From Chitinivibrionales bacterium (GTDB lineage: Bacteria; Fibrobacterota; Chitinivibrionia; Chitinivibrionales; WJKA01), in assembly GCA_038247415.1 (NCBI GenBank), contig JBBRUX010000030.1:1-48149 (forward strand): a stretch of 48,149 bases of DNA. Direction: 5' to 3'. How positions within the stretch are numbered: position 1 is the first letter of the stretch; each line of letters opens with the position of its first letter. Shown here in pieces: positions 24,970-43,820 of the stretch. The position numbers and the translations under genes are program-made. The notes below the pieces were generated by a model that saw nothing but the letters and a program-made list of their open reading frames with translations, was not told the origin of the DNA and did no database searches.

Positions 24970-25833
24970 CTACTGTCGCTCCCAATAATAGCCGTTGCTT
25001 CTGAATGTGATTGACCCGTGTATAAATGTTGACAGTGTAGTATATCGAAGTGCCCCCAGGAAGTCGAGAACGGATTGAGCCGGATGCCCATATTCATTTG
25101 GCGGCGGCGCACACGAGATAATTGTCCATTGGGGTTGCGAATATCCATAAAAAGTGGGTTCGAGCGCTGAACTTGAGCCATGATGCGGTACTACCAGAAT
25201 ATTTGCTGTTATTTTGTATCCCTTCCTCTTGCCAATTTCCCTCATTGCAATAGAATCTATATCGCCTGTAATCAGCACAGAACAGTCTTTGTGCCTTAAT
25301 TGTGCGCATAGCGAGTACCGGTTTTTCATTTCACTGGATGTTAAGGGATTCTCTGGAATTTCCTCTTTTGGCGGCCAAAGAAAGTGCACAGATACATCTG
25401 CATCAATGCATAGAGAGTCGTCTTCTCCTTTGACAGAAAAGACAATTCGGTTTTTCCAGACTCCCGCCTCGCTGCGGATGAGCGCGGTATCTGCCCCATA
25501 GCCAACCATCACTTTTCCGCTAAAATTTATTAATTCAGGAAGAAGCGATAATCCCCCGCGATGATCTTCATCGGTATGGGAGAGAACAATCATTTGTAGA
25601 GGAGGGGAGCCAAGGGTTAAATAACCTGCATACCACCGATACCATTCGCTTGCCGACCCCATATCCCAGACTATGGCGCTATCGTTGGTGATGCTAATTT
25701 GTGAAAGGCCCTGGCCTACATTGAGAACGGCAAATGATAGATTTTTAGCTGGAGTTCTTGAAGTGGGGGAGCAAGTTATTACCAGTGTCCCGATCAAGCA
25801 GAAAAATGACAACAAGCGCAGAGTGGGGTGCAT
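24970..25833 (-). CDS. ComEC/Rec2-like metallo-beta-lactamase-fold hydrolase (stand-alone, probable lipoprotein)
   Basis: NVGQG, SHTDEDHRGG, LITGD, VPHHGS, YGHP; lipobox VITC. Confidence 0.85.
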   Translation of the reverse strand: MHPTLRLLSFFCLIGTLVITCSPTSRTPAKNLSFAVLNVGQGLSQISITNDSAIVWDMGSASEWYRWYAGYLTLGSPPLQMIVLSHTDEDHRGGLSLLPELINFSGKVMVGYGADTALIRSEAGVWKNRIVFSVKGEDDSLCIDADVSVHFLWPPKEEIPENPLTSSEMKNRYSLCAQLRHKDCSVLITGDIDSIAMREIGKRKGYKITANILVVPHHGSSSALEPTFYGYSQPQWTIISCAPPPNEYGHPAQSVLDFLGALRYTTLSTFIHGSITFRSNGYYWERQ

Positions 25834-26049: not shown

Positions 26050-26667
26050 CTATTTAATCCCTTCAATTAAATATATGGATGGAATGAAAAAGAATGGCGA
26101 GATCCGGATGACATCGCCAATTGTGAAACCGGCTTCTTGCATCATTGTCCGTAAACGATTTTGCGAGAAGTATTGTGCTTTACTTACCGTGAGTCTGACA
26201 AAAACAAGAAAAAGGGCATCGTAGGGATTTTCCAGTGTCGCATGTGCAAGGAATAATCGTCCGTTAGGTTTCAAGTTCGAATACATTTTTTTTAATGCTT
26301 CGGATTTTTTGGGAACATAGGGAAATGCGTTTGTCGATACGATTGCGTCGTATGGCCCATATTCGCCTATTTCGTTGATAGATGCAACATGGTATGCCGT
26401 GTTGTTGACACAATGGCGCTCTTGTGCCGCAGCAATCATGCCCAAGCTTGTATCTATGCCGGTAATTGCGCAGGCGGGATATTCAATGGCAAGTTCGTTC
26501 ACCAGTTCTCCTACGCCGCAGCCGAGGTCGAGGATATTCGTTGGATGCGGTGTTTTCTGCCGGATTTGGGTTCGCACCTCACGCCGAGTGGGCCCTAAAG
26601 CAAAATATTGAGCCCATAATCTCTCGTATTTGTTGGCCCAGAACTCCCAAATTCGTGATGACATCAT
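26050..26667 (-). CDS. Class I SAM-dependent methyltransferase
   Basis: Motif I ILDLGCGVG; GIDTSLGMI, YDAIVS, LKPNGRL. Confidence 0.9.
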   Translation of the reverse strand: MMSSRIWEFWANKYERLWAQYFALGPTRREVRTQIRQKTPHPTNILDLGCGVGELVNELAIEYPACAITGIDTSLGMIAAAQERHCVNNTAYHVASINEIGEYGPYDAIVSTNAFPYVPKKSEALKKMYSNLKPNGRLFLAHATLENPYDALFLVFVRLTVSKAQYFSQNRLRTMMQEAGFTIGDVIRISPFFFIPSIYLIEGIK

Positions 26668-26671
26668 AGTA

Positions 26672-28054
26672 TTATCTCCACCATAGTAATTTCCAAAAAA
26701 ATTCTATTCCTACAACACAATTAATACTGATAATTTGAACGGTCTTACGAAAACCGCAACGATTGATAAGTTTGGCAAGGCTTGCGAAAGTGAGACTTGG
26801 TAGCATATACAAATAGAACAGCCAAAGATAATACCGTAGTGGTGACATATGCTTAGGGCGTTTGTGAAGCCGTAGCAGATCGAATCGCCATAATTGCGAA
26901 GCATGGGTACGCATTACATCGGAAGAATATGATTGTTGACCATAGGCTACTGTCCCAGGAAATAGTGTTTGAGTCGAAAATGTTGCATATTGAATGTGGT
27001 GCTTTTTGATATATCGAGCCAGTGCTCTAAAATTATCTGGTTCCCAGTCTGGATCCACAATGAACAGCGCAAAAAGTTCGATTCCAAAATATTGACATAG
27101 AGCAATAGTGTCGTTGTTTTCTTGTAGTGTTGCATGTTTTGAGACTGCATCAAGGCAATGCGTATCGATATATTCCAATCCGACAATTAATGCCGATAGC
27201 CCAGCCTTAACAAGCTGCCCAATGCAATCACGGTGGTGCGCGACAAAGTGGGCTGTGGCATAAGCAATAAAAGTCTTTTTTATTCCCTGCAAAGCGGTTA
27301 ATTCGGCAAACCGGATAAGCCTTTGCTCGTTAATGCAGAAATTGTCATCAACAATAAAAATCGTCTGGTTTTGTATCCCCGCTATTTCTGTGACAACATC
27401 TTCAATTGGTCGTGCAGCATAGCGACCCCCATTCATTTCACGACAAAAGCAAAAAGTGCATGCCCCGGTGCATCCCCAGGAAGTCTTGATCGAAGCGCAA
27501 TCGAGATAGTGAACAAAAGAGAATTTGTTACTACGATTATTTAGAAGAATCCGTTTGGGGTGGGGGAGAATTAAAGATTGTGGGTCCGCTTCGGCAGCAA
27601 TGATAAATTGGCCATTTCGGTTAAAATATGCCCCAGCCACCGCATAATATGGCTGATGTTGAGCAATACAGTTGACAATTGCTTGAATAGTCTTAAGGTG
27701 ATTGCCAACAACTACGCCATCGATCGAAGGTGCAAAGAAATGATGTGGAACAACTTCGGCATGCGGGCCGCCGATGAAAATTTTTATTTTTGGATACCAC
27801 TTTTTAATGGCAGTAGCATCTTGTAGTGCACAATTGGTTTGAGTAATATATGCAGTGAATAAAACGATATCTGGCTGCAGCGAACGGCATTTTTTTAGCA
27901 AGGTTCGGGTTGATGTATACTGATCTAAAATTGATACATCATAATCTTCCAATGCAGTATACAAATACTCCAATTCTAGGGGTTCGGTTTTCATGAGTCG
28001 ATCGAGCCGAATTGTACCGGGATGGAGGCGGGTTTTTACAATGAGTATGCGCAT
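26672..28054 (-). CDS. Cobalamin-dependent radical SAM protein (HpnR-like), paralog of 29566..30948
   Basis: EPLELE, B12-domain GGPHA, SWGCTGACTFC (CxxxCxxC), FIVDDNF, LFPGT. Confidence 0.9.
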   Translation of the reverse strand: MRILIVKTRLHPGTIRLDRLMKTEPLELEYLYTALEDYDVSILDQYTSTRTLLKKCRSLQPDIVLFTAYITQTNCALQDATAIKKWYPKIKIFIGGPHAEVVPHHFFAPSIDGVVVGNHLKTIQAIVNCIAQHQPYYAVAGAYFNRNGQFIIAAEADPQSLILPHPKRILLNNRSNKFSFVHYLDCASIKTSWGCTGACTFCFCREMNGGRYAARPIEDVVTEIAGIQNQTIFIVDDNFCINEQRLIRFAELTALQGIKKTFIAYATAHFVAHHRDCIGQLVKAGLSALIVGLEYIDTHCLDAVSKHATLQENNDTIALCQYFGIELFALFIVDPDWEPDNFRALARYIKKHHIQYATFSTQTLFPGTVAYGQQSYSSDVMRTHASQLWRFDLLRLHKRPKHMSPLRYYLWLFYLYMLPSLTFASLAKLINRCGFRKTVQIISINCVVGIEFFWKLLWWR

Positions 28055-28152: not shown

Positions 28153-29475
28153 TTAAAAAATGTTAGGTGGAATATGCCGGCGAATATATCGCCGATAATG
28201 CAAATTGACAAAAAAAGCAAACAGAAGCACTAATGGTCGTCTCAAGAACAATGGATGCAAAAGGGTGCGATACAGTATACTCCCAATACTGAAAATTCTT
28301 TCATTGAGTTGCCAATAGGCCTGTGTGAGTTGTTCGGCACTCATGTGTTTGGGCTTAAAAACACAGGTAGTTCCGGTATAGAGTTCGAAGTCTGTTGTCA
28401 GCAGACGATTCTGCTCTTTAAACTCATCGAATAACCGCGTTCCTGGCATTGGGGTAAGGAGGTAAAACCGGGGAATGGGAATCCGGGTTGAATGGATAAA
28501 ATCACCGGTTGCTTTGATACTTGCAAGCGTATCGCCGTCGGTACCCAGCATCATTTCGGAGCTTACCACAATTCCTGCTTTTGTAATGGTTTTGATAGAT
28601 TGTTGATGATTGTCAACGCGCAGCCATTTTTTATCCAATGCGTCAAGCCCTTCCTGAGAAATGCTTTCGACCCCAAAACTCATCATAGTGGCTCCGGCGG
28701 CCCGGACTTTTTTAAGTAAATGAGGGTAACGCGATAATTCCAGCGAACATTGGGTCGCCCACGACATGTTGAGCGGTTTGATGGAATCACACAATTCTTC
28801 GAGGTATTGGGGGCGGGAGACGATGTTGTCGTCAATTAAATAGAATCGTCTGATTCCAAGACTGCGAATTGCTTTGATATCACGAAGTACTTCAGGTATG
28901 GGTCGGGTCAGATATTTGCCTTTATATAAACAGGCAATCGAGCAAAAACTGCAGGTATGTGGACATCCGCGACCCGCTTGCACGGGAAGCATTCCGTTTA
29001 TCTTTTTATTAGTAAGGATATCGTAGCGAGGTAGGGGCAATCCTTCTAGAGACTGAATCGGATTGTTATATATCTTCTGTAAACGTCCGGTCAGCTCAAA
29101 ATCATTAAGCATCATGGGATATGAGAGTTCGGCGTCCCCAATAATTACCGAATCAACATGTTTGCTTGCCTGCGAAACCATAATCGATGCCATATATCCA
29201 CCCATAACAACGCATTTGCCACGTTTACGGAACTCGTGTGCAATGTCAATTGCCCGAAATGTTGCATGGCCCATTGAACCTATCCCGATGATGTCGGCAT
29301 CGGATTCGAAATCGACCTCTTCAATAACTTCAAGCGTAACCTGGACACGCCAATGCGAGGGCGTCATGGCCGCCAGAAGAGGGAATACAAGACCGGGCAA
29401 ATGAAGTCGTTTCTGTTTGCACAAGGTATGATCGGGGGCGTATTGGGTTGGCTGTATAAAGTAGATTTTTGGCAT
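28153..29475 (-). CDS. Cobalamin-dependent radical SAM protein (BchE/HpnP-like class)
   Basis: LAAMTP, VVMGGYMAS, VIIGDAE, RGCPHTCSFC, LIDDNI, FGVES, LTPMPGT. Confidence 0.92.
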   Translation of the reverse strand: MPKIYFIQPTQYAPDHTLCKQKRLHLPGLVFPLLAAMTPSHWRVQVTLEVIEEVDFESDADIIGIGSMGHATFRAIDIAHEFRKRGKCVVMGGYMASIMVSQASKHVDSVIIGDAELSYPMMLNDFELTGRLQKIYNNPIQSLEGLPLPRYDILTNKKINGMLPVQAGRGCPHTCSFCSIACLYKGKYLTRPIPEVLRDIKAIRSLGIRRFYLIDDNIVSRPQYLEELCDSIKPLNMSWATQCSLELSRYPHLLKKVRAAGATMMSFGVESISQEGLDALDKKWLRVDNHQQSIKTITKAGIVVSSEMMLGTDGDTLASIKATGDFIHSTRIPIPRFYLLTPMPGTRLFDEFKEQNRLLTTDFELYTGTTCVFKPKHMSAEQLTQAYWQLNERIFSIGSILYRTLLHPLFLRRPLVLLFAFFVNLHYRRYIRRHIPPNIF

Positions 29476-29565: not shown

Positions 29566-30948
29566 TTAGAGCATTTTAGATTCTTCTGCACGAGCCTCAT
29601 TACGCTTGATCAAATACTGGTTTCGAACGCGAATGCTCCCTGTTGCCATTTTCCACAAGAGCTGTGGCGAGAACCTCAGCATGTAGTGAATGAGAACTAA
29701 CGGCCTGAATAGAACTCGGTCATAGAGTTGAATGATTTCCTGATAAAAGGCTGAAATTGACATGTGCGTTGGTCGTACGGTAACATGCGCCAAATCCCAA
29801 AACGGATATGCAGTTGGGGAAATAACCAGGTCATCGGACGAAATGGTAGAAGCTGTGCCAGGTAATGGAGTGAATGGCTGAACATTGACATAGGTTATAC
29901 CCAGCTGGATTAATGTTTTTGCACATTCCAAAAAGCGATGTTTGTCCCAATTCGGCGAAGCAATAATTGTTGCATAAATATCTATGTTAAGAGATTGCAG
30001 CACTTTAATTGCAGTTCGGTTTGTTTGGCTCGTGCTCCCTTTGTTGTAATCTGCAAGTTCATCATCAAAAAATGATTCGAAACCGACAATGATTGTTTTT
30101 AACCCGGCAGCTCGAAATCTCCCCATCAATTCGGGATTGGCCGCAACAAAATCGGCTCGGCCATACACAAGATAGTGTTTACGAATGCCTAAACGCTCAA
30201 CTTCGCTACAAAAAGCTTCGAGTCGCGATTTTGACGCAAGAAAATCATCGTCAACAATATAGATCTCCTTTTCGTCAATTGTAGCCAATTCATCGAAGAC
30301 TTCCTGCAAAGGGCGTTGGGCATAGGCAGAATCGGTAATAGCCCTGCAAAAACAGAACCGGCACGAGTGCGGGCACCCAAAGGATGTTTTCAGCAAAGCG
30401 ACATGTGAATGAAAAATGTAAAAATAGGAGGATCGATATGTGTGCGTTAGCGTACGATTTGGCAGCGGGAAAAAGAAATCTAAGGGCGGTAAATCCTCCT
30501 TAATGCACTGTTCTGTCTTACGCAGAATCCCAAGCGGAAGTTTTTCCGACGACCCTAAGTGCTCTAATAGTAGGGGAAATACCCTGGTAGCATTGCGGAC
30601 AATGCGATAATCGATGCTGGGATGATCGAAGTGCTCGGGACAAACTTCGCAATGAACACCACCCACTATGGTATGAATCGCTGGATTGTATCGTTTGACA
30701 ACTTCGCAATAGTCAATAATCACGGGAATATGGGTGATATAACCGGTTAAGCATACGATACCGGGATTATGCAGTTTCAAAAAATGGAGCAAAGATTTTC
30801 TTTCGAGAATCATATCAACTATAATAGGCATATTGGGAGACCTAATGAGTGTTGCTAAAACCTCAAGCTCCAGTGGCTCCACGATCATGACATGCTGCAA
30901 TCCGATCGTCTCTGGCGATGGACGGGGACGGACGAGGAGGATGTTCAC
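29566..30948 (-). CDS. Cobalamin-dependent radical SAM protein (HpnR-like)
   Basis: EPLELE, IVGGVH, SFGCPHSCRFC, IVDDDF, VGFES, TPLPGT, WDLAHV. Confidence 0.92.
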   Translation of the reverse strand: MNILLVRPRPSPETIGLQHVMIVEPLELEVLATLIRSPNMPIIVDMILERKSLLHFLKLHNPGIVCLTGYITHIPVIIDYCEVVKRYNPAIHTIVGGVHCEVCPEHFDHPSIDYRIVRNATRVFPLLLEHLGSSEKLPLGILRKTEQCIKEDLPPLDFFFPLPNRTLTHTYRSSYFYIFHSHVALLKTSFGCPHSCRFCFCRAITDSAYAQRPLQEVFDELATIDEKEIYIVDDDFLASKSRLEAFCSEVERLGIRKHYLVYGRADFVAANPELMGRFRAAGLKTIIVGFESFFDDELADYNKGSTSQTNRTAIKVLQSLNIDIYATIIASPNWDKHRFLECAKTLIQLGITYVNVQPFTPLPGTASTISSDDLVISPTAYPFWDLAHVTVRPTHMSISAFYQEIIQLYDRVLFRPLVLIHYMLRFSPQLLWKMATGSIRVRNQYLIKRNEARAEESKML

Positions 30949-31955
30949 TTATTCTCCACTTGAAAAACGCGTGTGCTCGGTGCGTAATCATTGTAAGAGA
31001 GCAATCCTCGTGCCGCACGTAAAGCGATACGGATGAGGGGTATCGAATGCCAGGCAAGCATTTGCTTCTCGCAGAGCTCTCCGCCCATGCGCATTTTAGG
31101 TACTACGGCGCTTTGCCCTAGCTCGATTATTTGCGCATGTGCCGTTATACCCTGTTTGACAAGGGTCAGCAATTTGACATGATAAAGATCTGATGAATCA
31201 GCGTCATACACTTGCCCGCCAAGGAAGAATGCAAATATTCCAGTTCTGCTATCCTGGGTGATTACCCAGCCTTTTATTATTGTGTTGTGTGTAAATGTTG
31301 TTAGTTGGAATGAAAATGGGAGATTCACAAAAAACTCCAAGGACAAATGCTCAAGTTTGCCTTTGCTGCGCTTTAAGACATTTTCGTAGAGAGTGTAGTG
31401 AATATCGCTGAAGGTATTGCATCCGGTTGTTTGAGTTGCGTATCGCTGTGCGAATTTCTCTATGCTATGTATCCGGCGACGATAGGATGATCGGATGCTC
31501 CTGATGTAGTGTTCCCAAGAGTTAAATTGATTTTTAAGAATTACCGTAGGCCAGGTCCGTCCCAAAATGAAAGGTTCAAATCCGGAATTCTGGTCAAGAT
31601 TCAGTGTCAAGATGAAACCTTTTTCATGAGTGCGAATTGCATTGAGTACATCCGGATACAGCGCATGATCGCCGATTATTCCCGGTGCCGAAACAGAGCA
31701 GGGAATGCCGACAATGTGCATCTGCATGGGGCTTTTAATCCCCAGATAGGTGAGAATATCGATTTTGAGGGTATAAACAATTACGCCAACAAAGTTTTGA
31801 GTTGCATCATTGATACTATAATAGCGCTGGTTGCAAGGGTTATATGATTCGCAATGATGCAGGAATGCTCTGCATTGAAAAAAACTGTGCGTATGCGAAT
31901 CCCACATTTCAGGAAGCTCACGTGCAGCGGTGTATCGTTGTAAATTGGGCATCAC
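30945..31955 (-). CDS. FemAB-like / GNAT-fold acyl- or aminoacyl-transferase
   Basis: WEHYIRSIRSSYRRRI, LYENVLKRS, LSLEFF, IELGQSAVVPKMRMG match the FemAB-like/Acetyltransf_6 pattern. Confidence 0.7.
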   Translation of the reverse strand: MMPNLQRYTAARELPEMWDSHTHSFFQCRAFLHHCESYNPCNQRYYSINDATQNFVGVIVYTLKIDILTYLGIKSPMQMHIVGIPCSVSAPGIIGDHALYPDVLNAIRTHEKGFILTLNLDQNSGFEPFILGRTWPTVILKNQFNSWEHYIRSIRSSYRRRIHSIEKFAQRYATQTTGCNTFSDIHYTLYENVLKRSKGKLEHLSLEFFVNLPFSFQLTTFTHNTIIKGWVITQDSRTGIFAFFLGGQVYDADSSDLYHVKLLTLVKQGITAHAQIIELGQSAVVPKMRMGGELCEKQMLAWHSIPLIRIALRAARGLLSYNDYAPSTRVFQVENK

Positions 31956-33049
31956 AATTGACTTTCAAAAATGCCGTATTTCCTATACGGCGCAAGTGAC
32001 GTGCCAATCGCCCGTTCAAGCAACCGTTTTGTCATAACCACGCTATTATGGTTTTCCTCAAAAATGAATCCCCCTTCACAGGTTGTGTATCCTTCTTGCT
32101 TAAGAATAGGAATGAGTTTTTGAATCATGAGGATGACTGCAGGGCTTTTACGGTATTCGGGAAGCACGGCCACTTCGGTTAACCGGAATGTTTTGAGTGG
32201 ATTGAAAAAACGATATCTTAATACGTCAATAATGCCAATGTCTTGGCCAGGCCCCACTAAACCGTTGAAATCGGGATACCAGAGTAAAAAGCCAACAGGT
32301 TTGCCATCTTTTTCGACAAAAATGAGATTCTCATTTTTTAAAAGAAATCGAAAAGGATGAAAGAGTTCGAAATTTTCTTTAGGTTTTCGGTTCGACCAAT
32401 ACCAATAACGCGTATTGGTAAACGAGCTGTTGTCGATCGAGGTGTAGAGATCTATCTCCTGGCGCAATTTATTCTTGTCCATACATCGAATGGTAAAGCC
32501 CTGAGTATCAATTTTCGATAATGTTTTTTCAATATTCCATTGATAAAAAGGAGTAAGCGAAAATCGAAATGAAATAGTTGTGTTGCAAGAAAAACCGGAA
32601 AAATACTGCTGATAATAAGGCAGATTATAGGGAAGGCCAAAAACCGGCGGCTGGTCAAACCTATCGAGAAGAATTCCGGCGCCATAATTCAGGTGCCCGT
32701 TCAGACCTGCGACTAGCTTTTTAATATGAGGTTTCCATTCCCGGGCATACTCGATAAGAGCCGCGGGCAATTCTGGAATGTGGGGGAGAGCTTCAAAAAA
32801 CCCGATCTGTACATATTCGGGAAGGTTGTCATCGTATATAAAAGCGCATCGTCCTACAATCCGGTTATCGTGCAAAAAAAGAGATGGTTGCACCTGGGCG
32901 TGTGTATGGAATGTGCAGGGCCCTGAAACCAGCATTTTAACAATGGATTCTTCGGTTGATCGATGACAAGGAGTATCTTTATAAATCAGACAGGTAATCT
33001 GATAAAATGCACGAAGTTCAACATCATTTTCTACTTTACGGATAATCAT
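31952..33049 (-). CDS. YghO/bacterial ceramide synthase-like GNAT N-acyltransferase
   Basis: Start ATG 33049 overlaps the upstream TGA; VGRCAF, IGFFEA, GILLDRFDQPP..LPYNLPYY, PDFN, VLPEYRK, IFEEN, YRKYGIFE. Confidence 0.75.
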   Translation of the reverse strand: MIIRKVENDVELRAFYQITCLIYKDTPCHRSTEESIVKMLVSGPCTFHTHAQVQPSLFLHDNRIVGRCAFIYDDNLPEYVQIGFFEALPHIPELPAALIEYAREWKPHIKKLVAGLNGHLNYGAGILLDRFDQPPVFGLPYNLPYYQQYFSGFSCNTTISFRFSLTPFYQWNIEKTLSKIDTQGFTIRCMDKNKLRQEIDLYTSIDNSSFTNTRYWYWSNRKPKENFELFHPFRFLLKNENLIFVEKDGKPVGFLLWYPDFNGLVGPGQDIGIIDVLRYRFFNPLKTFRLTEVAVLPEYRKSPAVILMIQKLIPILKQEGYTTCEGGFIFEENHNSVVMTKRLLERAIGTSLAPYRKYGIFESQL

Positions 33050-34302
33050 AGAAATAGTTCTTTGGCAGGCGCAAAACCAAGAAAATGAGTATATGCTGAG
33101 GCGCAATATGCGCCTGCTTCGCCAAACACGATGATATCCCCTGGATGTGCGCACGGGAGAAGTATATCCCGAGCCAGAAAATCGCGTGAATAGGTAGAAC
33201 ACCCATATACAGAAGTCCGACAGAGCGGCCCTGGCAGGGAGCCAGCTTTCGGTATGAGCAGTGCCGGATGAAAGGCAGAGTCCGGATAAAAGAGCGGACG
33301 GGGAAATTGGACAGAAGAAGCATTAACACCACAGAATTGTCCGGTCTCGCCCTGCTTGATGTCTATAACTTGACAAGCAAAGTAGCCTGCCAGAGCGCCA
33401 ATACAACGTCCGGGTTCGAGTATTACCTGTAATGTACGACCTAATTTTGCATTGACAGAAGACATGAAATCGCAGACCATGGTGCCATAGGCTTCAAAAT
33501 CAAATCGATTTCCTAACTCATTAGTTAACCCAAAGCCTCCGCCTAAATCCAGATAGTCGAGGTTAGGGAAAAGATGTGCAAAAGAAGCCAGTGCTTCATA
33601 GCAGGTTTTGAAATAATCTATGGAGCAAATATCGGTTCCAACATACAAATGCAAACCATTGACGTATAGGTTGCCAGACAATGCCTTTATTTCGTCAGGG
33701 AAGAGCCCCAGCCGACTCTCCTTGCCGATAAAATACCCGCCACGGGTCTTCTTTGCATCAACCAGAGAACCAATATTACACCGAATGCCGAATTCAGAAC
33801 AGGGATACAGCGATTGCCACTGTTTGATTTGCATACAAGAATCAAGATTGACCATTGCACCGCTTGCATGCACGGCATGCATTGTTGAGGCACTCATTGC
33901 CGATGCGGTATACATTATGCGCTTTCCGGTAAAACCAAGGGTCTGCACTTTTTTAAGATGCTCGATAGAGTTGACAAAAACATTAGCTCCTTGATCGCGG
34001 ATACAGTTCAGAAAATCTGCGTGGCTATTAGCCATTGTCGCAAAATGGATTGAAAGCGGTTCATACGGCAGGTTAAATGCACTACATGCAGATTGAATCT
34101 GAGATATATCATACACATAGATTGGTTCAGGATCTTTTTGCAGGGTCGTTTCTATGAATTTTTTGATATGCAATGGAATGGAGATTGGTGGAGTGTTGGG
34201 CAGATCATTCTTGGTATCAAATACCTTGTTGTCACTTGTTTGCAGAGAATTCACGGCCATGCTTATTACCTTTGGTTGCTCACGTTTGTTTGTAGGTCGC
34301 AT
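33046..34302 (-). CDS. Diaminopimelate/ornithine decarboxylase-fold (fold type III) protein lacking the PLP-binding lysine
   Basis: PIYVYD, VNLDS, GIRCN, DLGGGFG, LEPGR, GAYC are LysA-family motifs; the YAVKAN motif reads FATMAN; alternative start ATG 34260. Confidence 0.85.
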   Translation of the reverse strand: MRPTNKREQPKVISMAVNSLQTSDNKVFDTKNDLPNTPPISIPLHIKKFIETTLQKDPEPIYVYDISQIQSACSAFNLPYEPLSIHFATMANSHADFLNCIRDQGANVFVNSIEHLKKVQTLGFTGKRIMYTASAMSASTMHAVHASGAMVNLDSCMQIKQWQSLYPCSEFGIRCNIGSLVDAKKTRGGYFIGKESRLGLFPDEIKALSGNLYVNGLHLYVGTDICSIDYFKTCYEALASFAHLFPNLDYLDLGGGFGLTNELGNRFDFEAYGTMVCDFMSSVNAKLGRTLQVILEPGRCIGALAGYFACQVIDIKQGETGQFCGVNASSVQFPRPLFYPDSAFHPALLIPKAGSLPGPLCRTSVYGCSTYSRDFLARDILLPCAHPGDIIVFGEAGAYCASAYTHFLGFAPAKELFL

Positions 34303-34560
34303 ATTTTTAAAAGATCCGTATCACTTTTACAAGTGCAATTGTTAGCATTGTGTAAGTATCAAGTTCTCTCGTTAAAATAGATCCTTCTTAGCCCGTATGG
34401 CAAACTCAATCTTCAGGCGTTAGGGTGCAAAATTTGGGTAGAGGAACAAGTTGTGACGAGGGATGTAATAATGCATATGAGGGGCGTTCTGGACCCGAAA
34501 AATTCAGAATTCCTTTTGAGCGTGAAAAACTATAAATCCAGACGATTCAGTCGAAAAGGT

Positions 34561-35792: not shown

Positions 35793-37397
35793 TTACAAAT
35801 TAATCTGCGCATTCACATGTATTGCTACATCCTTTCCAAACAGAGGAAAAAGGGCTCCGCTGCACTGAACCTGCATTGAAGACTCTTCGGATAGTTTCAG
35901 TTTCTGAGAAATGCCGAAATTGCCTGTGGTAGGTGTCTGGGTGCCTCCAGAAATAAGAATGCGCGGGGTAATTGACAATGCTGCAAGAGGCGACATTTCC
36001 AGAACTATCGAAAGATCTTCTTGTAGTGGATGTAGTGTGGCTTGTGAGATTTGGGCTTGAGAACCCCAGGAAATCTTTGGCGAAAAATCGTTGTGATATA
36101 CTAATGTTGCGCTTGAGGTGAAGGTTTGTAGGGGCAACAAAGCATTCCCGCGTATCCTGCACGATACAGTCCGGGAAGCACATGAAAACGATGTTCCGAT
36201 TGTTGATCCGATAGATTGTACGGTATCGCCTGCAATGCATTCTGCTTGCCAATCGGTTGCCAATGCTTGAAGCCACGAAGCTTTGATCATAGATGAGATG
36301 CAATAGAGTGGATAGGGTATCAAACTTTTAGTTAAGTCAAGTGCATTCGTACTATGCTTATAGCTTTGGGAGAGGCCTGTGTCAAAATATGCCGGAAAAC
36401 GCTGCACGTCAAGAGAATAGAAGAGCTTTTGATGGCGCACGGATATTCCTGCAAATATGGGAAGGGATGCTTGGTTTTTAAGCGTGGTACCTATTTGAAT
36501 ATAGGGAATAACCGAGTGGAAGATACTTGACAGGCGTAGGGTTGTTAACCCACGATTCTGGTCGGATGGCGCAGGATCATTGCGATGCACATAGACTACA
36601 TTTGCTTCTAGAGCACAGAGGGGAAAAAGACTTGTGAGATTTAAAAGCGCAGCAGATTCATCGAAGCCATAATGAACCAAACTTGTGGATTGGAGAATTG
36701 TTCCCCGATATGATGCCTTAACTCCATTGTAAAGCGAGTTGTCACCGTAGAGCCAATTGTTGGTAAGTGTTTTGTCGCTGCCAACAAGAGAGTGGTGTGT
36801 ACCTAAAAACATGCCATGATCGGGATCTGCCGAAAAGTTTCCAACGCATACAGCAAGTTCTTTTGAGGGTGTAATAATAATCGAGCGACGCGAAAATCGT
36901 GCAATGGTTTCTGATAGAGAGATCACGCTTGACAATCTCAAAAGTGAAGGTGTTCGCACATCAAAACTTACTTTTGTTTCGATGGTGTCTACATTTGAGT
37001 GTTTTGTCAATGAAAGCCTCGTTGCCAAAGCTCCAGTATTATGGGGTGTGAACGTGGTAAGTGGCAAAAAAGATATAAGCGATGGAAAATCTTTGAGAAA
37101 ACGTTTTTGAGCGCTTGTATTCCAAGGGACATACGCGGCTAAGGTGTCGATCGTGGGGAGCTCACAAGCATTCAGAAAGGTGAACACTTGCCTTAATTCG
37201 TCACATTCTCCATCGGGAATAGAAAGCGGTTTTGTGTACCATACTTTAAGCGCAGAGTACGTTGAATAGCTGAGCGCACCTCGGCTAAGTTCTTGATATG
37301 CCTCATGTTCTGATGCTGGAATGATAGTGTTGCGAATGGGCTGCGCAAACAGATTTGTTGCTAGGGCTAAAAGTATTATTATGCTTCCGCAAAACAT
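35793..37397 (-). CDS. Hypothetical outer-membrane protein resembling FCB helix-hairpin-helix/beta-barrel proteins
   Basis: Likely start ATG 37397 with signal peptide ending NLFA; degenerate HhH-like KPLSIPDGECDEL; VGNFSADPDHGMFLG; beta-rich C-terminus HVNAQINL. Confidence 0.5.
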   Translation of the reverse strand: MFCGSIIILLALATNLFAQPIRNTIIPASEHEAYQELSRGALSYSTYSALKVWYTKPLSIPDGECDELRQVFTFLNACELPTIDTLAAYVPWNTSAQKRFLKDFPSLISFLPLTTFTPHNTGALATRLSLTKHSNVDTIETKVSFDVRTPSLLRLSSVISLSETIARFSRRSIIITPSKELAVCVGNFSADPDHGMFLGTHHSLVGSDKTLTNNWLYGDNSLYNGVKASYRGTILQSTSLVHYGFDESAALLNLTSLFPLCALEANVVYVHRNDPAPSDQNRGLTTLRLSSIFHSVIPYIQIGTTLKNQASLPIFAGISVRHQKLFYSLDVQRFPAYFDTGLSQSYKHSTNALDLTKSLIPYPLYCISSMIKASWLQALATDWQAECIAGDTVQSIGSTIGTSFSCASRTVSCRIRGNALLPLQTFTSSATLVYHNDFSPKISWGSQAQISQATLHPLQEDLSIVLEMSPLAALSITPRILISGGTQTPTTGNFGISQKLKLSEESSMQVQCSGALFPLFGKDVAIHVNAQINL

Positions 37398-37660
37398 TTT
37401 ATGGTAATTCAAACTTTTATTCCTTATATTGTCACAAGATGTCATGATGGGAATACTGTATAAAGAGAGTTTATAACCTCGCGACAATCTAAGCGCTTAA
37501 CTAGATACTTTATTATTCTATTAAGTGCACATACGGGCAACTTTGCTGTGCAGTTCTTGCAGGAGTTGGGAAACCGGCAGACGAACATGCAGCACCATGA
37601 TTTTCGGTTACTACACCAGGAAATTACGTTCTTCGGAACCAAGGAAAGCAGGTATACTGT

Positions 37661-38509
37661 ATGGAGAAAATTGCAGGCGGAATTAACGATGATATGGCTC
37701 TGGCTCTTTATATGAATGAAATTTCCCGCTTTAAGCCACTTCCTCCCAAAGAAGAGGCGCAGCTTTCTGCAAAAATTAGGACGGGTGACCGCAAAGCATT
37801 GGTCAAACTCCTGGTTTCTAATTTGCGCTTTGTTGTAAGTGTTGCCCGCAATTATCAGCACCAAGGTCTTCCCCTTATCGATCTTATCAACGAAGGTAAT
37901 ATCGGCCTTATCAGAGCTGCCCGAAAATTCGACGAAACGAAGAATTTCAAGTTTATCTCGTATGCAGTTTGGTGGATACGACAATCTATTTTGCAGGCCC
38001 TGGCAGAACAGTCTCGCATTGTAAACCTTCCCCTCAATCGCGTGGGCACCATTTATAAAATTGGTCAAGCCCTTAAGAAGCTGGAGCAGCGCAAGGGTCG
38101 GCAACCAGAAGCTGAAGAAATTGCCGACGAACTCGGTCTTACGTTGCACGAAGTTCGCGACACACTTAAAATTGGCGATTCGCATGTTTCCTTGGATGCA
38201 CCTTTTGAAACTGGCGAAGATTCTTGCCTGATGGACATGATGGTTGACAAAGCTAATGATGTTCCTGACGTGGTATGTTTTGAGCATGCTCTGCAAGATG
38301 AGCTTCGCCGCACGTTGAGCTATCTGCCCGATCGTGAACAACGTATTGTGAGTCTTTATTATGGCATTGGTGAAGAAAATCCTCATACCCTCGAAGAAAT
38401 CGGTGAGAGGTTTAACCTTACGCGCGAACGTGCCCGGCAGATTAAAGAAAATGCCTTGCGACGTTTGCGCAACGAAGCGTCTATCGAGAAATTGCGTACT
38501 TACGCGTAA
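37661..38509 (+). CDS. Short RpoD/SigA-family sigma-70 factor lacking region 1.1
   Basis: LYMNEI, SNLRFVVSVA, DLINEGNIGLIRAA, FISYAVWWIRQSI, SLDAP, TLEEIG, TRERARQI. Confidence 0.95.
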   Translation: MEKIAGGINDDMALALYMNEISRFKPLPPKEEAQLSAKIRTGDRKALVKLLVSNLRFVVSVARNYQHQGLPLIDLINEGNIGLIRAARKFDETKNFKFISYAVWWIRQSILQALAEQSRIVNLPLNRVGTIYKIGQALKKLEQRKGRQPEAEEIADELGLTLHEVRDTLKIGDSHVSLDAPFETGEDSCLMDMMVDKANDVPDVVCFEHALQDELRRTLSYLPDREQRIVSLYYGIGEENPHTLEEIGERFNLTRERARQIKENALRRLRNEASIEKLRTYA

Positions 38510-38513
38510 ATAG

Positions 38514-39353
38514 TTACTTGACATAGGCAAATGACACTCCCTTAGACCATCCAAGATCTGTTTGCTTTATGGTGTTTACAGAAAAACCATACTGCGACGT
38601 TCCCACAAGTAAGCCAATACTCACCGAAAATGGGGATGATCCAATCCCGCCAAGTATCGCGCAATTCTGGGACAGTTGCAAAGCTTCTGCTAGTGCAAAG
38701 CGAATAATCTGATGACGCCCTGGCGTAAGTTCAAACAATAAACCGCTTCGTGCTCCTTTGTAGGGAGCGGTTTCGAGTGCGCATCCAAGCAAAAGCGGAT
38801 CCCCATAAGCAATAGCGCTCTTGTAAATGATCGGAATATTGCGTACCGAGCCACTTAAAAATCCTGCCTGAGAAGCTAATCGCACAGTCGCAGAAAGTGC
38901 TGCGTAAGTACGAATTTTTTGTGGTGCCACATTCAAATATGCAAAGCAGGTTCGTGCATCAATTCCTAGGGCAACATGTTTGGTAATTGTATACCCGATA
39001 CTTGTACGCACTTCATTTTCGAAATACATCCCAAGGGCCGAGAATTGAGAAAAAAAGAGACTGCAACTCGTTTTTTTAAAGCGGAATGCCCCATAGATTT
39101 CTGCGCTGATAAGATCGGTTGCAGTGCCACCCATGGGATCAAAATAAAGAGACGCAGACGTTGCGAATCCATACCGAAAACTATCGGGCAACCAGAGTGC
39201 ATTTGATGCAAACGATAATGAAGATTTCATAAGAGGGCTTTGAATTGTCCCCAATGAACCCATAGAAAAGCCGCTTGTAAAGGGCTCTTGCGTAAATGCG
39301 TGAAGCAGGCTCCCGCCCAGCAGAACTATAAGTATGGTACGCTTTATCGCCAT
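38514..39353 (-). CDS. Hypothetical outer-membrane beta-barrel protein (PorV/PorP-like size and pattern)
   Basis: Likely start ATG 39353 overlapping the upstream stop; signal peptide ending LLHA; FSMGSLG...SNA; ends LGWSKGVSFAYVK. Confidence 0.5.
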   Translation of the reverse strand: MAIKRTILIVLLGGSLLHAFTQEPFTSGFSMGSLGTIQSPLMKSSLSFASNALWLPDSFRYGFATSASLYFDPMGGTATDLISAEIYGAFRFKKTSCSLFFSQFSALGMYFENEVRTSIGYTITKHVALGIDARTCFAYLNVAPQKIRTYAALSATVRLASQAGFLSGSVRNIPIIYKSAIAYGDPLLLGCALETAPYKGARSGLLFELTPGRHQIIRFALAEALQLSQNCAILGGIGSSPFSVSIGLLVGTSQYGFSVNTIKQTDLGWSKGVSFAYVK

Positions 39354-41071
39354 AGCAAGCCTTTTGCTCGCAAAGGCGAGGCGGTCGGTTGATCGTCCCT
39401 TTGTGCAAGGACAAAAAAGGGACCAAGGGGTGCCAAAGACCCTGAGGATGATCTGCCATCCCAGAAAAGGGTCCCTGATGCGCATTGAGTAAATTGCTTG
39501 ATGTTATCTCCACGCATCGACCGTATGGTAATGGTTGCAGTTTTTAGAGGAGGAAGCAGAAGTTTTATCGCAAGAAGATCATCGATGCGATCTTTGTTTG
39601 GTGTAAAGGGAGTTGGGCCAACACTCATTGAAAATGTTACCGAAGCATACGGAAGTCGAGCTTCTGGAACCCCTGGAGTACGGTGCTCTGCAAGCATGAA
39701 TGCTACTGAATCGGATAACGTGCACGCAACGCAGGTTCGTGTGAGGGATTGGAAATTCCAATTCGAATACCAAAGATATGTGTAGTGAGCAGTTGTGATG
39801 GTTTGATGACGTGTGTTTGCAATAATTATAGTATCGTGATAATTGTCAAGAGTTGGCCAGTTGGCAACTTCAATACATTGAAAGGGAATTCCGGGAAAGG
39901 CAGCGCGCAAAAGAGATGTGTTGGGGGTGAGAATGCAGTACGATTTAGCTTCGAGGATGTAATCTGTTTGCGTGATGGGAACATTAACCGATTGGGATCC
40001 AATAGTCCAATTCTTGAGATTGCTTGAAAAGGTTCCGCTATTAAAGCATTCGACCCATTCAGGCGAAGTAGCAGTTGCTCGGGGACTCAGTGTAGTGATG
40101 CAGATCTTGGGCAATGATTGTGCGAATTCTGCTATACTAATAAAGAGTGAGGCACTATCACGAATCGAGTGTGTTGTTAGGATGTAGGTGTTTATACCCA
40201 GCGGGAGACGCATACAAAAAAAGAGCGTGCCATAGGCCGGAGATTCTAAAGTTGTGTCAACAAGAAATACTGTTGAGTTTTCCGAAGTGCCGGTAACACG
40301 AACCGTATTGAGTGGTCCACCGTTAAAACGTCGCACGCCAAGAGAACAAAGAACGGTGTTTTGTATGGTATCCAGGCATTGATACTCGAAGCGAAGAATG
40401 CCTTTGGTATTGTCAATATATCCCGCTGAAGTTTTCGTTTTTTCTGGGAAGTAATTCTTTGTTGGGAGAATGAAAAAATCCGGCACCAGGGAGGTTCCTT
40501 CCCGTGAAGCCACACGCGCATGGAGTGGGAGCTTTGTGTTTTGAAATGTGGGTGCTATTCCCGAATCAAGGGCTGTGCAGATAACGGAATCGATACTGCT
40601 TCGTGTGCCCCGATAGATAAAAAGTCCATCGTTTGCGGTAATTCCCCCTAAGAGGTCAATATGATTGACTGTGAGAATAGTAGCGTTTGTATCAAGAGAA
40701 TATCGGTAGGCGTTTTGATCCGAAAGGTATTCCTTGTCAAAAATGAGGGCTGCGTGGCCTGGAGCAAGGATCGTTGCCGTGCACTTGCATGATGTGCATT
40801 CGGTAGTAAATGCAGCGAAAGGAATAATTGAATCGACGGTTATCCCATTGCTAATGAAGAGGTTGCCAAGCGCAAGTGTTTCTGGTCCAAAGTTTGTGAA
40901 TTCTACAAATTCGTTGCTCTTTCCGCCTCCGATAACGCTTTCGTTTCCAAGGGGATCGCGCATAATTTCTGATATGCGAACATCCGCTGTGCTTGTGTGC
41001 AAAGCTCCGGCAAGAAGTTGCAATCCTAAGAAATAAAGCAGAAAGAAAGAGTACCCGAATTTGATATTCAT
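39344..41071 (-). CDS. Secreted lamin-tail-domain protein with FlgD-Ig / T9SS type-B-like C-terminal domain
   Basis: Likely start ATG 41071; LTD motifs ISEIMRDP..EFVEFTN and EWVECFN..NLKNWTI; C-terminal PFTPNKDRIDD and FWDGR..G. Confidence 0.75.
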   Translation of the reverse strand: MNIKFGYSFFLLYFLGLQLLAGALHTSTADVRISEIMRDPLGNESVIGGGKSNEFVEFTNFGPETLALGNLFISNGITVDSIIPFAAFTTECTSCKCTATILAPGHAALIFDKEYLSDQNAYRYSLDTNATILTVNHIDLLGGITANDGLFIYRGTRSSIDSVICTALDSGIAPTFQNTKLPLHARVASREGTSLVPDFFILPTKNYFPEKTKTSAGYIDNTKGILRFEYQCLDTIQNTVLCSLGVRRFNGGPLNTVRVTGTSENSTVFLVDTTLESPAYGTLFFCMRLPLGINTYILTTHSIRDSASLFISIAEFAQSLPKICITTLSPRATATSPEWVECFNSGTFSSNLKNWTIGSQSVNVPITQTDYILEAKSYCILTPNTSLLRAAFPGIPFQCIEVANWPTLDNYHDTIIIANTRHQTITTAHYTYLWYSNWNFQSLTRTCVACTLSDSVAFMLAEHRTPGVPEARLPYASVTFSMSVGPTPFTPNKDRIDDLLAIKLLLPPLKTATITIRSMRGDNIKQFTQCASGTLFWDGRSSSGSLAPLGPFFVLAQRDDQPTASPLRAKGLLWR

Positions 41072-41135
41072 GCCGTCAATATACAACAATGAACATTGAA
41101 GGTGGGGAGTTTTTTTTAAGGAGTTGCAGTTTAAA

Positions 41136-41165
41136 TTGCAGAGCATGCTGCGGCATGCTCTGCAA
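41136..41165 (-). terminator. Perfect 13-bp hairpin just after the aspS stop; probable terminator or REP-like element
   Basis: TTGCAGAGCATGC-tgcg-GCATGCTCTGCAA; only a short T tract follows on the minus strand. Confidence 0.6.
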
Positions 41166-43127: not shown

Positions 43128-43820
43128 ATGTCGCAAGCAATACCCAAAAAAGGCGTTTTTATTAGTGGTACTTCCACTAATGTGGGAAAAACGTATGTAA
43201 GTGCGCTTATTGCTTCTGCAGTTACCGAATATCGGCCAGTTACCTATTGCAAACCTGTTCAAACCGGATGCGAAAAACTGGTAAATGGTACCCTGGTTGC
43301 GCCCGATTTTGATTATGTTCGTCATGCAGTCAATCTGATCCGCGTGCATAATGATGTTCACGTGCCGTATAAATTTGAGCTGGCTTGTTCTCCGCATCTG
43401 GCTGCTCAAAGTGCACAAGTTAGTCTTTCTATTACCCCAATTGTGGAAGCCGTAGAGGCCTTGTCACAACAAGCATTTGTTGTAGTGGAGGGTGCGGGTG
43501 GCGTGTGTACACCGCTTTCAGAAACGTCAACGATGCTCGATTGCATGTGTGCATTAGGGCTTCCGGTACTTCTTGTTACTACCCCAGAACTAGGCACGCT
43601 TAATCATACAATATTGTCTTATGATCGCTTGGTTCTTGCAGGTTTAACCTGTGGAGGGATTATTTTTAATAATTGTGATCATCTCGAAGAAGATTTTGTT
43701 CGGGTAAGCAATAAAGAGTTTTTAAAAAATCGCTATTCACATATCCCATTTCTTGAAATAGGTTATAAAGCAACCGTAGATACTGCGCTTAAGGAATTTG
43801 TCCATGGACTTTGTCAATAA
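43128..43820 (+). CDS. bioD: Dethiobiotin synthase
   Basis: GTSTNVGKT P-loop, KPVQTG, SPHLAA, VEGAGG, LGTLNHT. Confidence 0.96.
   Translation: MSQAIPKKGVFISGTSTNVGKTYVSALIASAVTEYRPVTYCKPVQTGCEKLVNGTLVAPDFDYVRHAVNLIRVHNDVHVPYKFELACSPHLAAQSAQVSLSITPIVEAVEALSQQAFVVVEGAGGVCTPLSETSTMLDCMCALGLPVLLVTTPELGTLNHTILSYDRLVLAGLTCGGIIFNNCDHLEEDFVRVSNKEFLKNRYSHIPFLEIGYKATVDTALKEFVHGLCQ

Follow-up and report, generated by a model that had tools for sequence, protein, structure and literature searches.

Described relatives of the locus

To our knowledge, the internal lysine aldimine is regarded as the defining feature of enzymes that depend on pyridoxal 5'-phosphate (PLP), and all characterised decarboxylases of fold type III have the lysine. 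The stretch of DNA analysed here, which is called the window throughout, comprises positions 1 to 48,149 (48,149 nucleotides, nt) of contig JBBRUX010000030.1 from a Chitinivibrionales bacterium (assembly GCA_038247415.1). On its minus strand, at 33046-34302, an intact open reading frame (ORF) encodes a protein of 418 amino acids (aa) with the LysA/ODC fold (PLP fold type III), in which methionine, Met90, stands at the position of the Schiff-base lysine. This Lys-less protein belongs to a clade that is large, old, strongly constrained and spread over many phyla. That the clade is real, conserved, Lys-less and not housekeeping is almost certain. The best explanation for the protein itself, which is held at about even chances and draws on sequence comparison, is that it is a working Lys-less fold-III tailoring enzyme that would bind PLP non-covalently and would most likely act as a decarboxylase.

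Among the described systems, diaminopimelate (DAP) decarboxylase, LysA (model TIGR01048; structures 2yxx and 1knw/1ko0), offers one comparison. The Lys-less protein has the same two-domain fold, the GGG loop, EPGR, GxY and R174, and the two arginines by which LysA binds the distal carboxylate of DAP are also kept, as R299 and R335. It differs from LysA in that Met, Phe, Tyr, Arg, Thr-Tyr and Phe stand in the window for the Schiff-base Lys, the Asp, the stacking His, the Lys of KFG, the Cys-Glu pair and Tyr351', respectively.

According to the accessible part of one source (PMC7857480), the substrates that BtrK, MccE, SbnH and FigC, all of the DAPDC clade, decarboxylate are amino acids in tethered or derivatised form. 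BtrK, an L-glutamyl-[BtrI carrier protein] decarboxylase (2j66, 7ru7), is comparable to the window protein in its fold type III and in its tethered amino acid, and it is among the best PDB matches, at 122 bits. However, BtrK is described in the available text as a canonical PLP-dependent decarboxylase (PMC7857480), and the window cassette is without a carrier-protein gene. MccE of the microcin C system consists of a DAPDC-clade decarboxylase with a C-terminal GNAT and works with MccD, a transferase dependent on S-adenosylmethionine (SAM), as reported in the accessible portions of PMC10491745 and PMC7857480. It acts on a transferred 3-amino-3-carboxypropyl group, and a route by decarboxylated SAM was also considered possible in the available part of PMC10491745. 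When MccE is compared by its description, the likeness lies in a decarboxylase-fold unit joined to a GNAT, which in the window takes the form of an ATGA overlap and in the database protein P0141 that of a fusion of the Lys-less protein and the GNAT. The differences are that the GNAT of the window is a 365-aa tandem protein, whereas the accessible description gives MccE a single RimL-like domain, and that the partners in the window are radical-SAM enzymes. No 3-amino-3-carboxypropyl transferase was identified among the SAM-using neighbours. In a tblastn search of a plasmid collection, MccE was not among the 60 matches listed.

In pyruvoyl decarboxylases, the carbonyl is never masked by a lysine aldimine; the amine of the substrate adds directly, and the product leaves by hydrolysis. 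These enzymes, of which S-adenosylmethionine decarboxylase is one, may resemble the Lys-less protein in its proposed mechanism only, as their fold and cofactor are unrelated. Antizyme inhibitor (3btn, 4zgz), which is inactive as a decarboxylase, also has the ODC fold and is a weak PDB match. However, the contacts in the Lys-less clade are nearly invariant, and the clade is bacterial and operon-linked. The K36A variant of Escherichia coli YggS was found to hold PLP non-covalently within the same pocket, with a dissociation constant of 124 nM against 1.3 nM for the wild type, in the accessible part of the report (PMC9601805). It is a likeness in that such a barrel can hold PLP without the lysine. 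The likeness is limited, since the variant is an engineered form of a non-enzymatic, single-domain protein, and its affinity is about 100-fold lower (PMC9601805, as far as accessible).

Active-site replacements in the window protein

An earlier note on this DNA, made from its letters, had described an intact frame at 33046-34302 in which the canonical YAVKAN motif reads FATMAN. Both points hold. The frame runs uninterrupted over 418 aa on the minus strand, where the sequence around Met90 reads ATC CAT TTT GCG ACA ATG GCT AAT, the codon of Met90 being the ATG at 34035-34033 (34033-34035 in forward numbering). An internal ATG at 34260 is an alternative start, which would yield 404 aa and is used by a database copy. 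The further motif readings of the note were also recovered. HLYVGTD carries Tyr220, which the profile alignment pairs with the ring-stacking His179 of the Thermotoga maritima enzyme. GCSTYSRD, in which the position of the catalytic Cys is altered, spans residues 367-374, and its Thr370-Tyr371 align to Cys314-Glu315. SKFG has become SRLG at residues 196-199, so that the second pocket lysine, that of the KFG motif, is Arg197 in the window protein. The retained motifs, DLGGGFG, EPGR and GAY, all read as they had been given. The set of replacements is Lys to Met, Asp to Phe, stacking His to Tyr, KFG to RLG, Cys-Glu to Thr-Tyr, and Tyr to Phe.

The residue map was made by profile alignment to the T. 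maritima DAP decarboxylase 2yxx, with the roles of residues taken from the accessible part of PMC8277567. On the lysine side of the pocket, Lys46, which forms the Schiff base and is the probable general acid, corresponds to Met90; Asp65, which forms a salt bridge to the freed lysine, corresponds to Phe109; Glu71, which adjoins the freed lysine, corresponds to His115, an invariant residue; and Tyr351', which contacts the lysine ammonium, corresponds to Phe407. The ring is stacked by His179 (Tyr220 in the window), and its nitrogen is met by Glu246 (Glu296). The phosphate is held by Ser182 (Thr223) and Tyr343 (Tyr399). Arg249 and Arg285, which bind the distal carboxylate of DAP, are Arg299 and Arg335, and the partner-subunit loop Cys314'-Glu315', of which Glu315 binds the distal amine, is Thr370-Tyr371. 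As judged from this alignment, the grip on the cofactor is kept, and the lysine and the residues that interact with it have turned hydrophobic or aromatic.

Conservation of Met90

Since AAG and ATG differ by one base, a sequencing or assembly error, with AAG read as ATG, could in principle have disguised an ordinary DAP decarboxylase. This is refuted by conservation. A homologue search at E <= 1e-3 gave 600 proteins. From the 120 best of them, the family alignment took 119 homologues at 48-60% identity, an identical copy (P0002) being left out, and joined them to the query. At the Schiff-base column of these 120 aligned sequences, the best of the 600, methionine was found 116 times, glutamine four times and lysine not once. 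The earlier note had asked whether Met is conserved together with the Tyr and GCSTY changes, and whether homologues have Lys at the site; Y220 and GCSTYS are invariant in the alignment, and no homologue in it has the lysine. At least eight further active-site positions are altered alongside Met90. The argument of the note that such parallel changes speak against an error is strengthened by the finding that the replacements co-vary across the whole clade.

The contigs of three public runs agree at the site, and no letter differs from the window over 33000-34400. The comparison used assembled contigs, not raw reads, and the three runs come from one study, two of them maybe from the source sample, so that this support is only weakly independent. 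Furthermore, the true lysA of the genome lies on a separate contig. Taken together, an error at Met90 has a negligible probability.

The Lys-less clade

A profile search of 1.84 billion cluster representatives (50% identity) returned 12,024 matches at E <= 1e-3, 701 of them at E <= 1e-30. Residues were counted in the best 150 of the 12,024 matches, of which 138 have a residue at the Schiff-base column. Methionine was found in 69 of these rows, lysine in 52, valine and phenylalanine in seven each, and isoleucine, serine and proline in one each, so that lysine is absent from 86 of the 138. The two groups differ at the other pocket positions as well. Among the Lys-less rows with a residue at column 220 (n = 84), tyrosine occurs at 220 in 81, a non-acidic residue at 109 in all 84 and arginine at 197 in 67. 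In the rows with lysine (n = 52), histidine occurs at 220 in all 52, and an acidic residue at 109 and lysine at 197 in 51 each. Just five columns are conserved to at least 80% within each group and yet differ between the groups, namely 90 (M/K), 197 (R/K), 220 (Y/H), 223 (T/S) and 407 (F/Y), and all five fall in the active site. R174, G254-256, E296-P-G, D374, G397 and Y399 are at least 90% conserved in both groups.

The earlier note had allowed that another lysine might compensate for the missing one. The sole Lys-rich column of the clade is 316, with a lysine fraction of 0.82 in the Lys-less group and 0.88 in the canonical group; as it is equally rich in lysine in the canonical enzymes, it does not provide a compensating lysine.

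A tree was computed from 128 near-full-length rows after the removal of nine trait columns, 25 rows being left out as fragments or for a gap at column 90. It needs two changes between the labels Lys and non-Lys, of which the well-supported branches force only one. With shuffled labels, about 40 changes were needed on average, and none of 500 shuffles came as low as two. The window protein was placed within a set of 43 rows that are all non-Lys, and it bears the full signature of the clade, M-F-H-R-Y-T-T-Y at positions 90, 109, 115, 197, 220, 223, 370 and 371. By this sequence evidence, the set of replacements defines a near-monophyletic Lys-less clade. As the tree is a quick one with midpoint rooting, it reads equally well as a loss or as a gain of the lysine.

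Two sub-types of the clade were scanned further. The scan for sub-type A5 gave mostly canonical LysA, and 60 of the 75 ORFs that matched the profile have the lysine, because one of the two search patterns was the shared GGG loop. The scan for sub-type A7 gave 37 ORFs and recovered the signature M-F-H-R-Y-T-T-Y in cultured bacteria; its search pattern contains the Met, so that Met in 37 of 37 is by construction. No description of a Lys-less fold-III clade or of its cassette was found in the full-text literature, with subscription journals mostly outside the coverage.

Fold and paralogues

The Pfam domains PF02784 and PF00278 were matched at 72.5 and 45 bits (cut-offs 23.4 and 23). The best PDB sequence match is the T. 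maritima DAP decarboxylase 2yxx, at 147 bits. A model of the protein made with AlphaFold2 (AF2) on 120 sequences has a pLDDT of 90.3. Its top Foldseek match is E. coli LysA 1ko0 (TMq 0.80), and the values against structures of LysA, ODC and SbnH range between 0.70 and 0.80. Both domains and the barrel plus beta-domain fold thus place the protein in the fold-type-III superfamily. On the lysA model TIGR01048, however, it scores 149.5 bits, half of the cut-off of 297.9.

The genome was searched for paralogues over its 99 contigs (96% complete). A canonical lysA was found on another contig (C18); it scores 469.4 bits and has the motifs YSVKSN, HLGS and GPICESSD. An ODC-like paralogue (C16:18766-19878) scores 193 bits on the lysA model and has YALKSN, FHVGSQ and GPTCDSID; it is a third fold-III paralogue, probably an ornithine/lysine decarboxylase. 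With a canonical lysA and an ODC-like gene elsewhere in the genome, the Lys-less gene is not the housekeeping enzyme. The low lysA score, the separate canonical lysA, the Met found throughout the family and the co-variation across the clade together bear out the view in the earlier note that this is not an ordinary DAP decarboxylase.

Pocket conservation and proposed function

Y220, T223, G-C-S-T-Y-S, the GGG loop (G254-256), EPGR (E296 and R299) and Y399 are invariant in the 120 aligned sequences. At the 11 functional positions named in the literature, the mean identity in the family is 99.6%, compared with 65% for residues 58-417, and none of 50,000 random sets of 11 positions matched that conservation. 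Selection on the pocket is strong, as judged from the alignment. A decayed pseudoenzyme of the antizyme-inhibitor kind would be marked by less conserved cofactor and substrate contacts, and no such relaxation was found.

These values bear on the possibility that the protein is a non-catalytic pseudoenzyme, which would bind PLP, a PLP-amine adduct or an amino acid and would regulate or scaffold the GNAT and the radical-SAM enzymes. The canonical nucleophile and general acid are indeed missing (the equivalents of K46, C314 and E315), the gene of the window family is translationally coupled to one fixed neighbour, and the fold has dead paralogues, antizyme inhibitor being among the PDB matches at 53 and 48 bits. 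However, the pocket is nearly invariant rather than decayed, and its cofactor contacts are conserved as in active enzymes. In addition, the signature MFHRYTTY recurs with very different partners and in fusions to catalytic domains, which is unexpected for a scaffold with one partner. That the partner sets vary speaks for a generic role in catalysis and against such a scaffold, and in combination with the invariant pocket and the retained cofactor contacts it favours a working enzyme whose tailoring role is generic. A pseudoenzyme is therefore rather unlikely.

If the Lys-less protein is a working tailoring enzyme, PLP would be held non-covalently as a free carbonyl by the phosphate cup, the ring-nitrogen glutamate and the aromatic stack. 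The alpha-amine of the substrate would form the aldimine directly, and a pathway intermediate would undergo chemistry at C-alpha, most likely decarboxylation, at its amino-acid end. Residues other than lysine would have to protonate the product and release it by hydrolysis; the invariant His115, His218 and Tyr371 are candidates. The amine product may then pass to the coupled tandem GNAT, and afterwards to the FemAB-like transferase and the radical-SAM enzymes; together, the cassette would build a specialised metabolite. That the protein binds a B6 cofactor and is catalytic appears slightly better than an even chance, whereas the proposal that it is specifically a decarboxylase is tentative and somewhat doubtful.

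Several points weigh against this proposal. The case for cofactor binding is made from residue conservation and an unliganded AF2 model, and the residue map was counted by hand on a single profile alignment. Lys-to-Ala variants of fold-III decarboxylases are very poor catalysts, so that efficient turnover without the lysine would need a novel mechanism. Neither the Lys nor the Cys of CESGD, which usually donate the protons, is present, and this fits a chemistry other than decarboxylation or a binding role equally well. Finally, no conserved small ORF for a precursor peptide was found beside the window operon.

The operon and its conservation

The Lys-less gene heads a cassette of seven genes on the minus strand of the window. 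It is followed by the gene of the tandem-GNAT acyltransferase (31952-33049, minus strand, 365 aa), whose start, the ATG at 33049, overlaps the TGA stop of the Lys-less gene as ATGA. A longer ORF of 416 aa with a GTG start at 33202, which would overlap the Lys-less gene by 157 nt (33046-33202), was rejected as an artefact, the real start being the ATG at 33049. The longer frame is open in many related loci, probably because it overlies the stretch that codes for the invariant GCSTYSRD. Acetyltransf_1 matches 20 of 25 members of the GNAT family. The AF2 model of the window GNAT has a pLDDT of 90.9, and its nearest structures by Foldseek are the glucosamine N-acetyltransferase 5kf1, the clavulanate tandem GNAT 2wpw and the mycothiol synthase MshD. 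A complex of residues 40-418 of the Lys-less protein with the tandem GNAT and PLP was predicted at 0.01 against a mark of 0.32, a result that carries no weight either way.

The third gene (30945-31955, minus strand) encodes a FemAB-like/Acetyltransf_6 transferase of 336 aa with a GTG start that overlaps the upstream stop. Its orthologues match Acetyltransf_6 in 18 of 23 cases and FemAB_like in five of 23, and the copy in the window reaches neither model; its Atlas clusters score is 0.98. Next to it lies the gene of enzyme A (29566-30948, minus strand), an HpnR-like B12-binding radical SAM enzyme of 460 aa with the Pfam domains B12-binding and Radical_SAM. Enzyme A was matched by TIGR04367 at 5.7e-45, far under the cut-off of that model, and is syntenic in related loci. 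Enzyme B (28153-29475, minus strand, 440 aa) is a radical SAM enzyme like BchE, ApyD and HpnJ, in which a B12 domain was not detected. It is the most conserved protein of the cassette, at 55-67% identity in related loci, and its nearest solved sequence is AprD4 (6fd2, E 6.6e-10). In the PDB sequence searches, nothing better than E 0.26 was found for the FemAB-like protein and the GNAT profile, and no match for enzyme A. Two accessory genes complete the cassette on the same strand. One encodes enzyme C (26672-28054, 460 aa), a second HpnR-like B12-binding radical SAM enzyme, and the other a class I SAM methyltransferase of 205 aa (26050-26667; Pfam Methyltransf_23/31/25). Downstream, at 24970-25833 on the minus strand, a 287-aa ORF has a weak metallo-beta-lactamase match and a signal-like N-terminus. 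It was found in none of the 80 related loci described below, so that it is probably not a member of the cassette.

The conservation of the cassette was followed in a scan of one genome per species, which gave 85 relatives, of which 80, all metagenome-assembled genomes, were kept. The phyla represented in the 80 loci include Bacteroidota, Spirochaetota, Ignavibacteriota, Cloacimonadota, Myxococcota, Nitrospirota, Armatimonadota and Bacillota, among others. In tblastn searches, 75 of the 80 have the GNAT gene next after the Lys-less gene, and in 58 of these 75 the two share a start/stop overlap of 4 nt. Downstream DNA of at least 6.2 kb is available for 55 loci, and 45 of these contain all five core genes (tblastn). 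The accessory genes are less frequent: enzyme C, with a match at >= 36% identity taken as an orthologue, occurs in 28 of the 80 loci, and the class I methyltransferase in 14, adjoining enzyme C. In six loci (L024, L055, L057, L062, L065 and L067), the GNAT and the FemAB-like protein are fused into one protein of about 713-721 aa, which indicates that the two proteins of acyltransferase fold are functionally tied. A form with three genes was found in five loci; a SPASM radical-SAM enzyme (NirJ/PqqE/MoaA-like) stands there in place of the FemAB-like protein and the B12 enzymes. Beyond an ABC ATPase (at most 10 loci) and a 296-aa protein of unknown function (seven loci), no further conserved flanking genes were found in the 80 loci.

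Other genomic contexts

Outside the cassette, the clade was found with other partners. The Lys-less gene of Pseudomonas syringae pv. cilantro, Bradyrhizobium, Stappia, Streptosporangium and others has a CMAS-like methyltransferase, a spermidine-synthase-like protein and a transporter as its neighbours. These contexts are without a radical-SAM enzyme, and some of their Lys-less proteins are fused to a spermidine-synthase domain. Fusions of the clade to a class I methyltransferase were also found. In Mesorhizobium, Bradyrhizobium and Streptomyces, the Lys-less gene is flanked by SPASM and B12 radical-SAM enzymes on one side and a DUF3050 protein on the other, in clusters that adjoin a DegT aminotransferase, a split transketolase and TldD-like proteins. 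A sub-type designated M-C-H is preceded by a PqqD-like protein, an MftC-like SPASM enzyme and an ApyD-like B12 radical-SAM enzyme (287 bits), and in several of its loci, including a plasmid of Sinorhizobium meliloti GR4 and Hymenobacter perfusus, a paralogue of QueA lies upstream. Most partners of the clade use SAM or modify a primary amine.

The QueA paralogues head several of the M-C-H clusters, beside a PqqD-like protein and two radical-SAM enzymes, as in S. meliloti GR4 pRmeGR4a (L212, 3314-4339), L090 (2213-3241) and L088 (709-1737). QueA is the S-adenosylmethionine:tRNA ribosyltransferase-isomerase, and such clusters are an unusual site for a tRNA-modification enzyme. The paralogue may transfer a ribosyl group from SAM to a small molecule or a peptide. 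Long fusions of the Lys-less domain were seen in a Candidatus Eremiobacteraeota metagenome-assembled genome (L201, 1085 aa) and in one of Longimicrobium (L208, 954 aa). In a metagenome-assembled genome of Planctomycetes (L164, 6429-10692), genes for a prismane/CO-dehydrogenase protein and an acetyl-CoA-synthase beta subunit come immediately after the cluster formed by the Lys-less gene and the radical-SAM enzymes.

The partners of the clade could be taken to point to a B6 enzyme with a different chemistry, either a reaction of pyridoxamine 5'-phosphate (PMP) on a keto substrate or one in which the C-alpha carbanion left by decarboxylation is captured, instead of being protonated, by an electrophile supplied by a neighbour. 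Acyl-CoA would come from the GNAT, whose place could also be taken by SAM or methylcobalamin enzymes that provide a methyl or alkyl group. Lys-less enzymes that depend on PMP exist in fold type I, namely the dehydratases ColD and E1. Most neighbours and fusions of the clade would deliver an electrophile (the GNAT, the class I methyltransferase, the spermidine-synthase-like protein and the B12 radical-SAM enzymes), the proton donors are replaced by non-acidic residues, and the lysine side of the pocket is hydrophobic (M90, F109 and F407). Moreover, the new invariant His115 occupies the site of T. maritima Glu71, beside the free lysine in the accessible part of PMC8277567. However, no precedent in fold type III was found in the literature, B12 radical-SAM enzymes normally methylate substrates of their own by way of radicals, and the SPASM and QueA-like partners are not simple donors of electrophiles. 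The two chemistries, taken jointly, are unlikely.

A narrower form of the proposal that free-carbonyl PLP serves a working enzyme starts from the same neighbours. Here, the cofactor would never be bound to lysine, and the enzyme would act on SAM, or on a transferred 3-amino-3-carboxypropyl group, at its amino-acid end. Replacing both lysines and the cysteine by Met, Phe, Tyr and Arg would amount to a purge of nucleophiles and bases, groups that might otherwise be alkylated by the sulfonium or might trigger alpha-deprotonation and elimination. Such a purge would explain the constant SAM-using companions, namely the radical-SAM and B12 radical-SAM enzymes, the methyltransferases, the QueA paralogues and the spermidine-synthase domains. 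Although quite unlikely, this form would, if true, make the protein a PLP-dependent counterpart of AdoMet decarboxylase.

The SAM-consuming neighbours are the most constant feature of the clade contexts, and they could also be read as a sign that the pocket binds a phosphate- or ring-bearing ligand other than B6, such as a nucleotide or a by-product derived from SAM. However, the retained residues coincide exactly with the set that holds PLP by its phosphate, ring nitrogen and ring face, as described in the accessible part of PMC8277567, and no sign of a different ligand was seen in the sequence. Such a ligand is very unlikely.

Significance and further features of the window

If the Lys-less protein is active as a tailoring enzyme, the clade would represent a second way to run B6 chemistry in fold type III and would mark unexplored biosynthetic clusters, mostly around radical-SAM or other SAM-using enzymes. 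Public annotation labels members of the clade as 'diaminopimelate decarboxylase' or 'alanine racemase', which would lead to a miscount of lysine biosynthesis in metagenome-assembled genomes. Culturable carriers make the question directly testable. They include S. meliloti GR4 (pRmeGR4a), Mesorhizobium huakuii (on a plasmid) and Hymenobacter perfusus LMG 26000, as well as Streptosporangium, Saccharothrix and Cystobacter.

Two other regions of the window were noted. At 35793-41146 on the minus strand lie four ORFs of 564, 370, 323 and 600 aa. The first three are without a Pfam or NCBIfam match, and the last carries Lamin Tail Domains and a weak T9SS type-B sorting domain, so that the run hints at a secreted protein cluster of the Bacteroidota type. 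At 43128-46294 on the plus strand, genes for AAA_26 (dethiobiotin-synthase-like), Aminotran_3 and Aminotran_1_2 proteins follow one another, and the region resembles a biotin operon (bioD-bioA-bioF) whose PLP enzymes are ordinary ones that bear the lysine.

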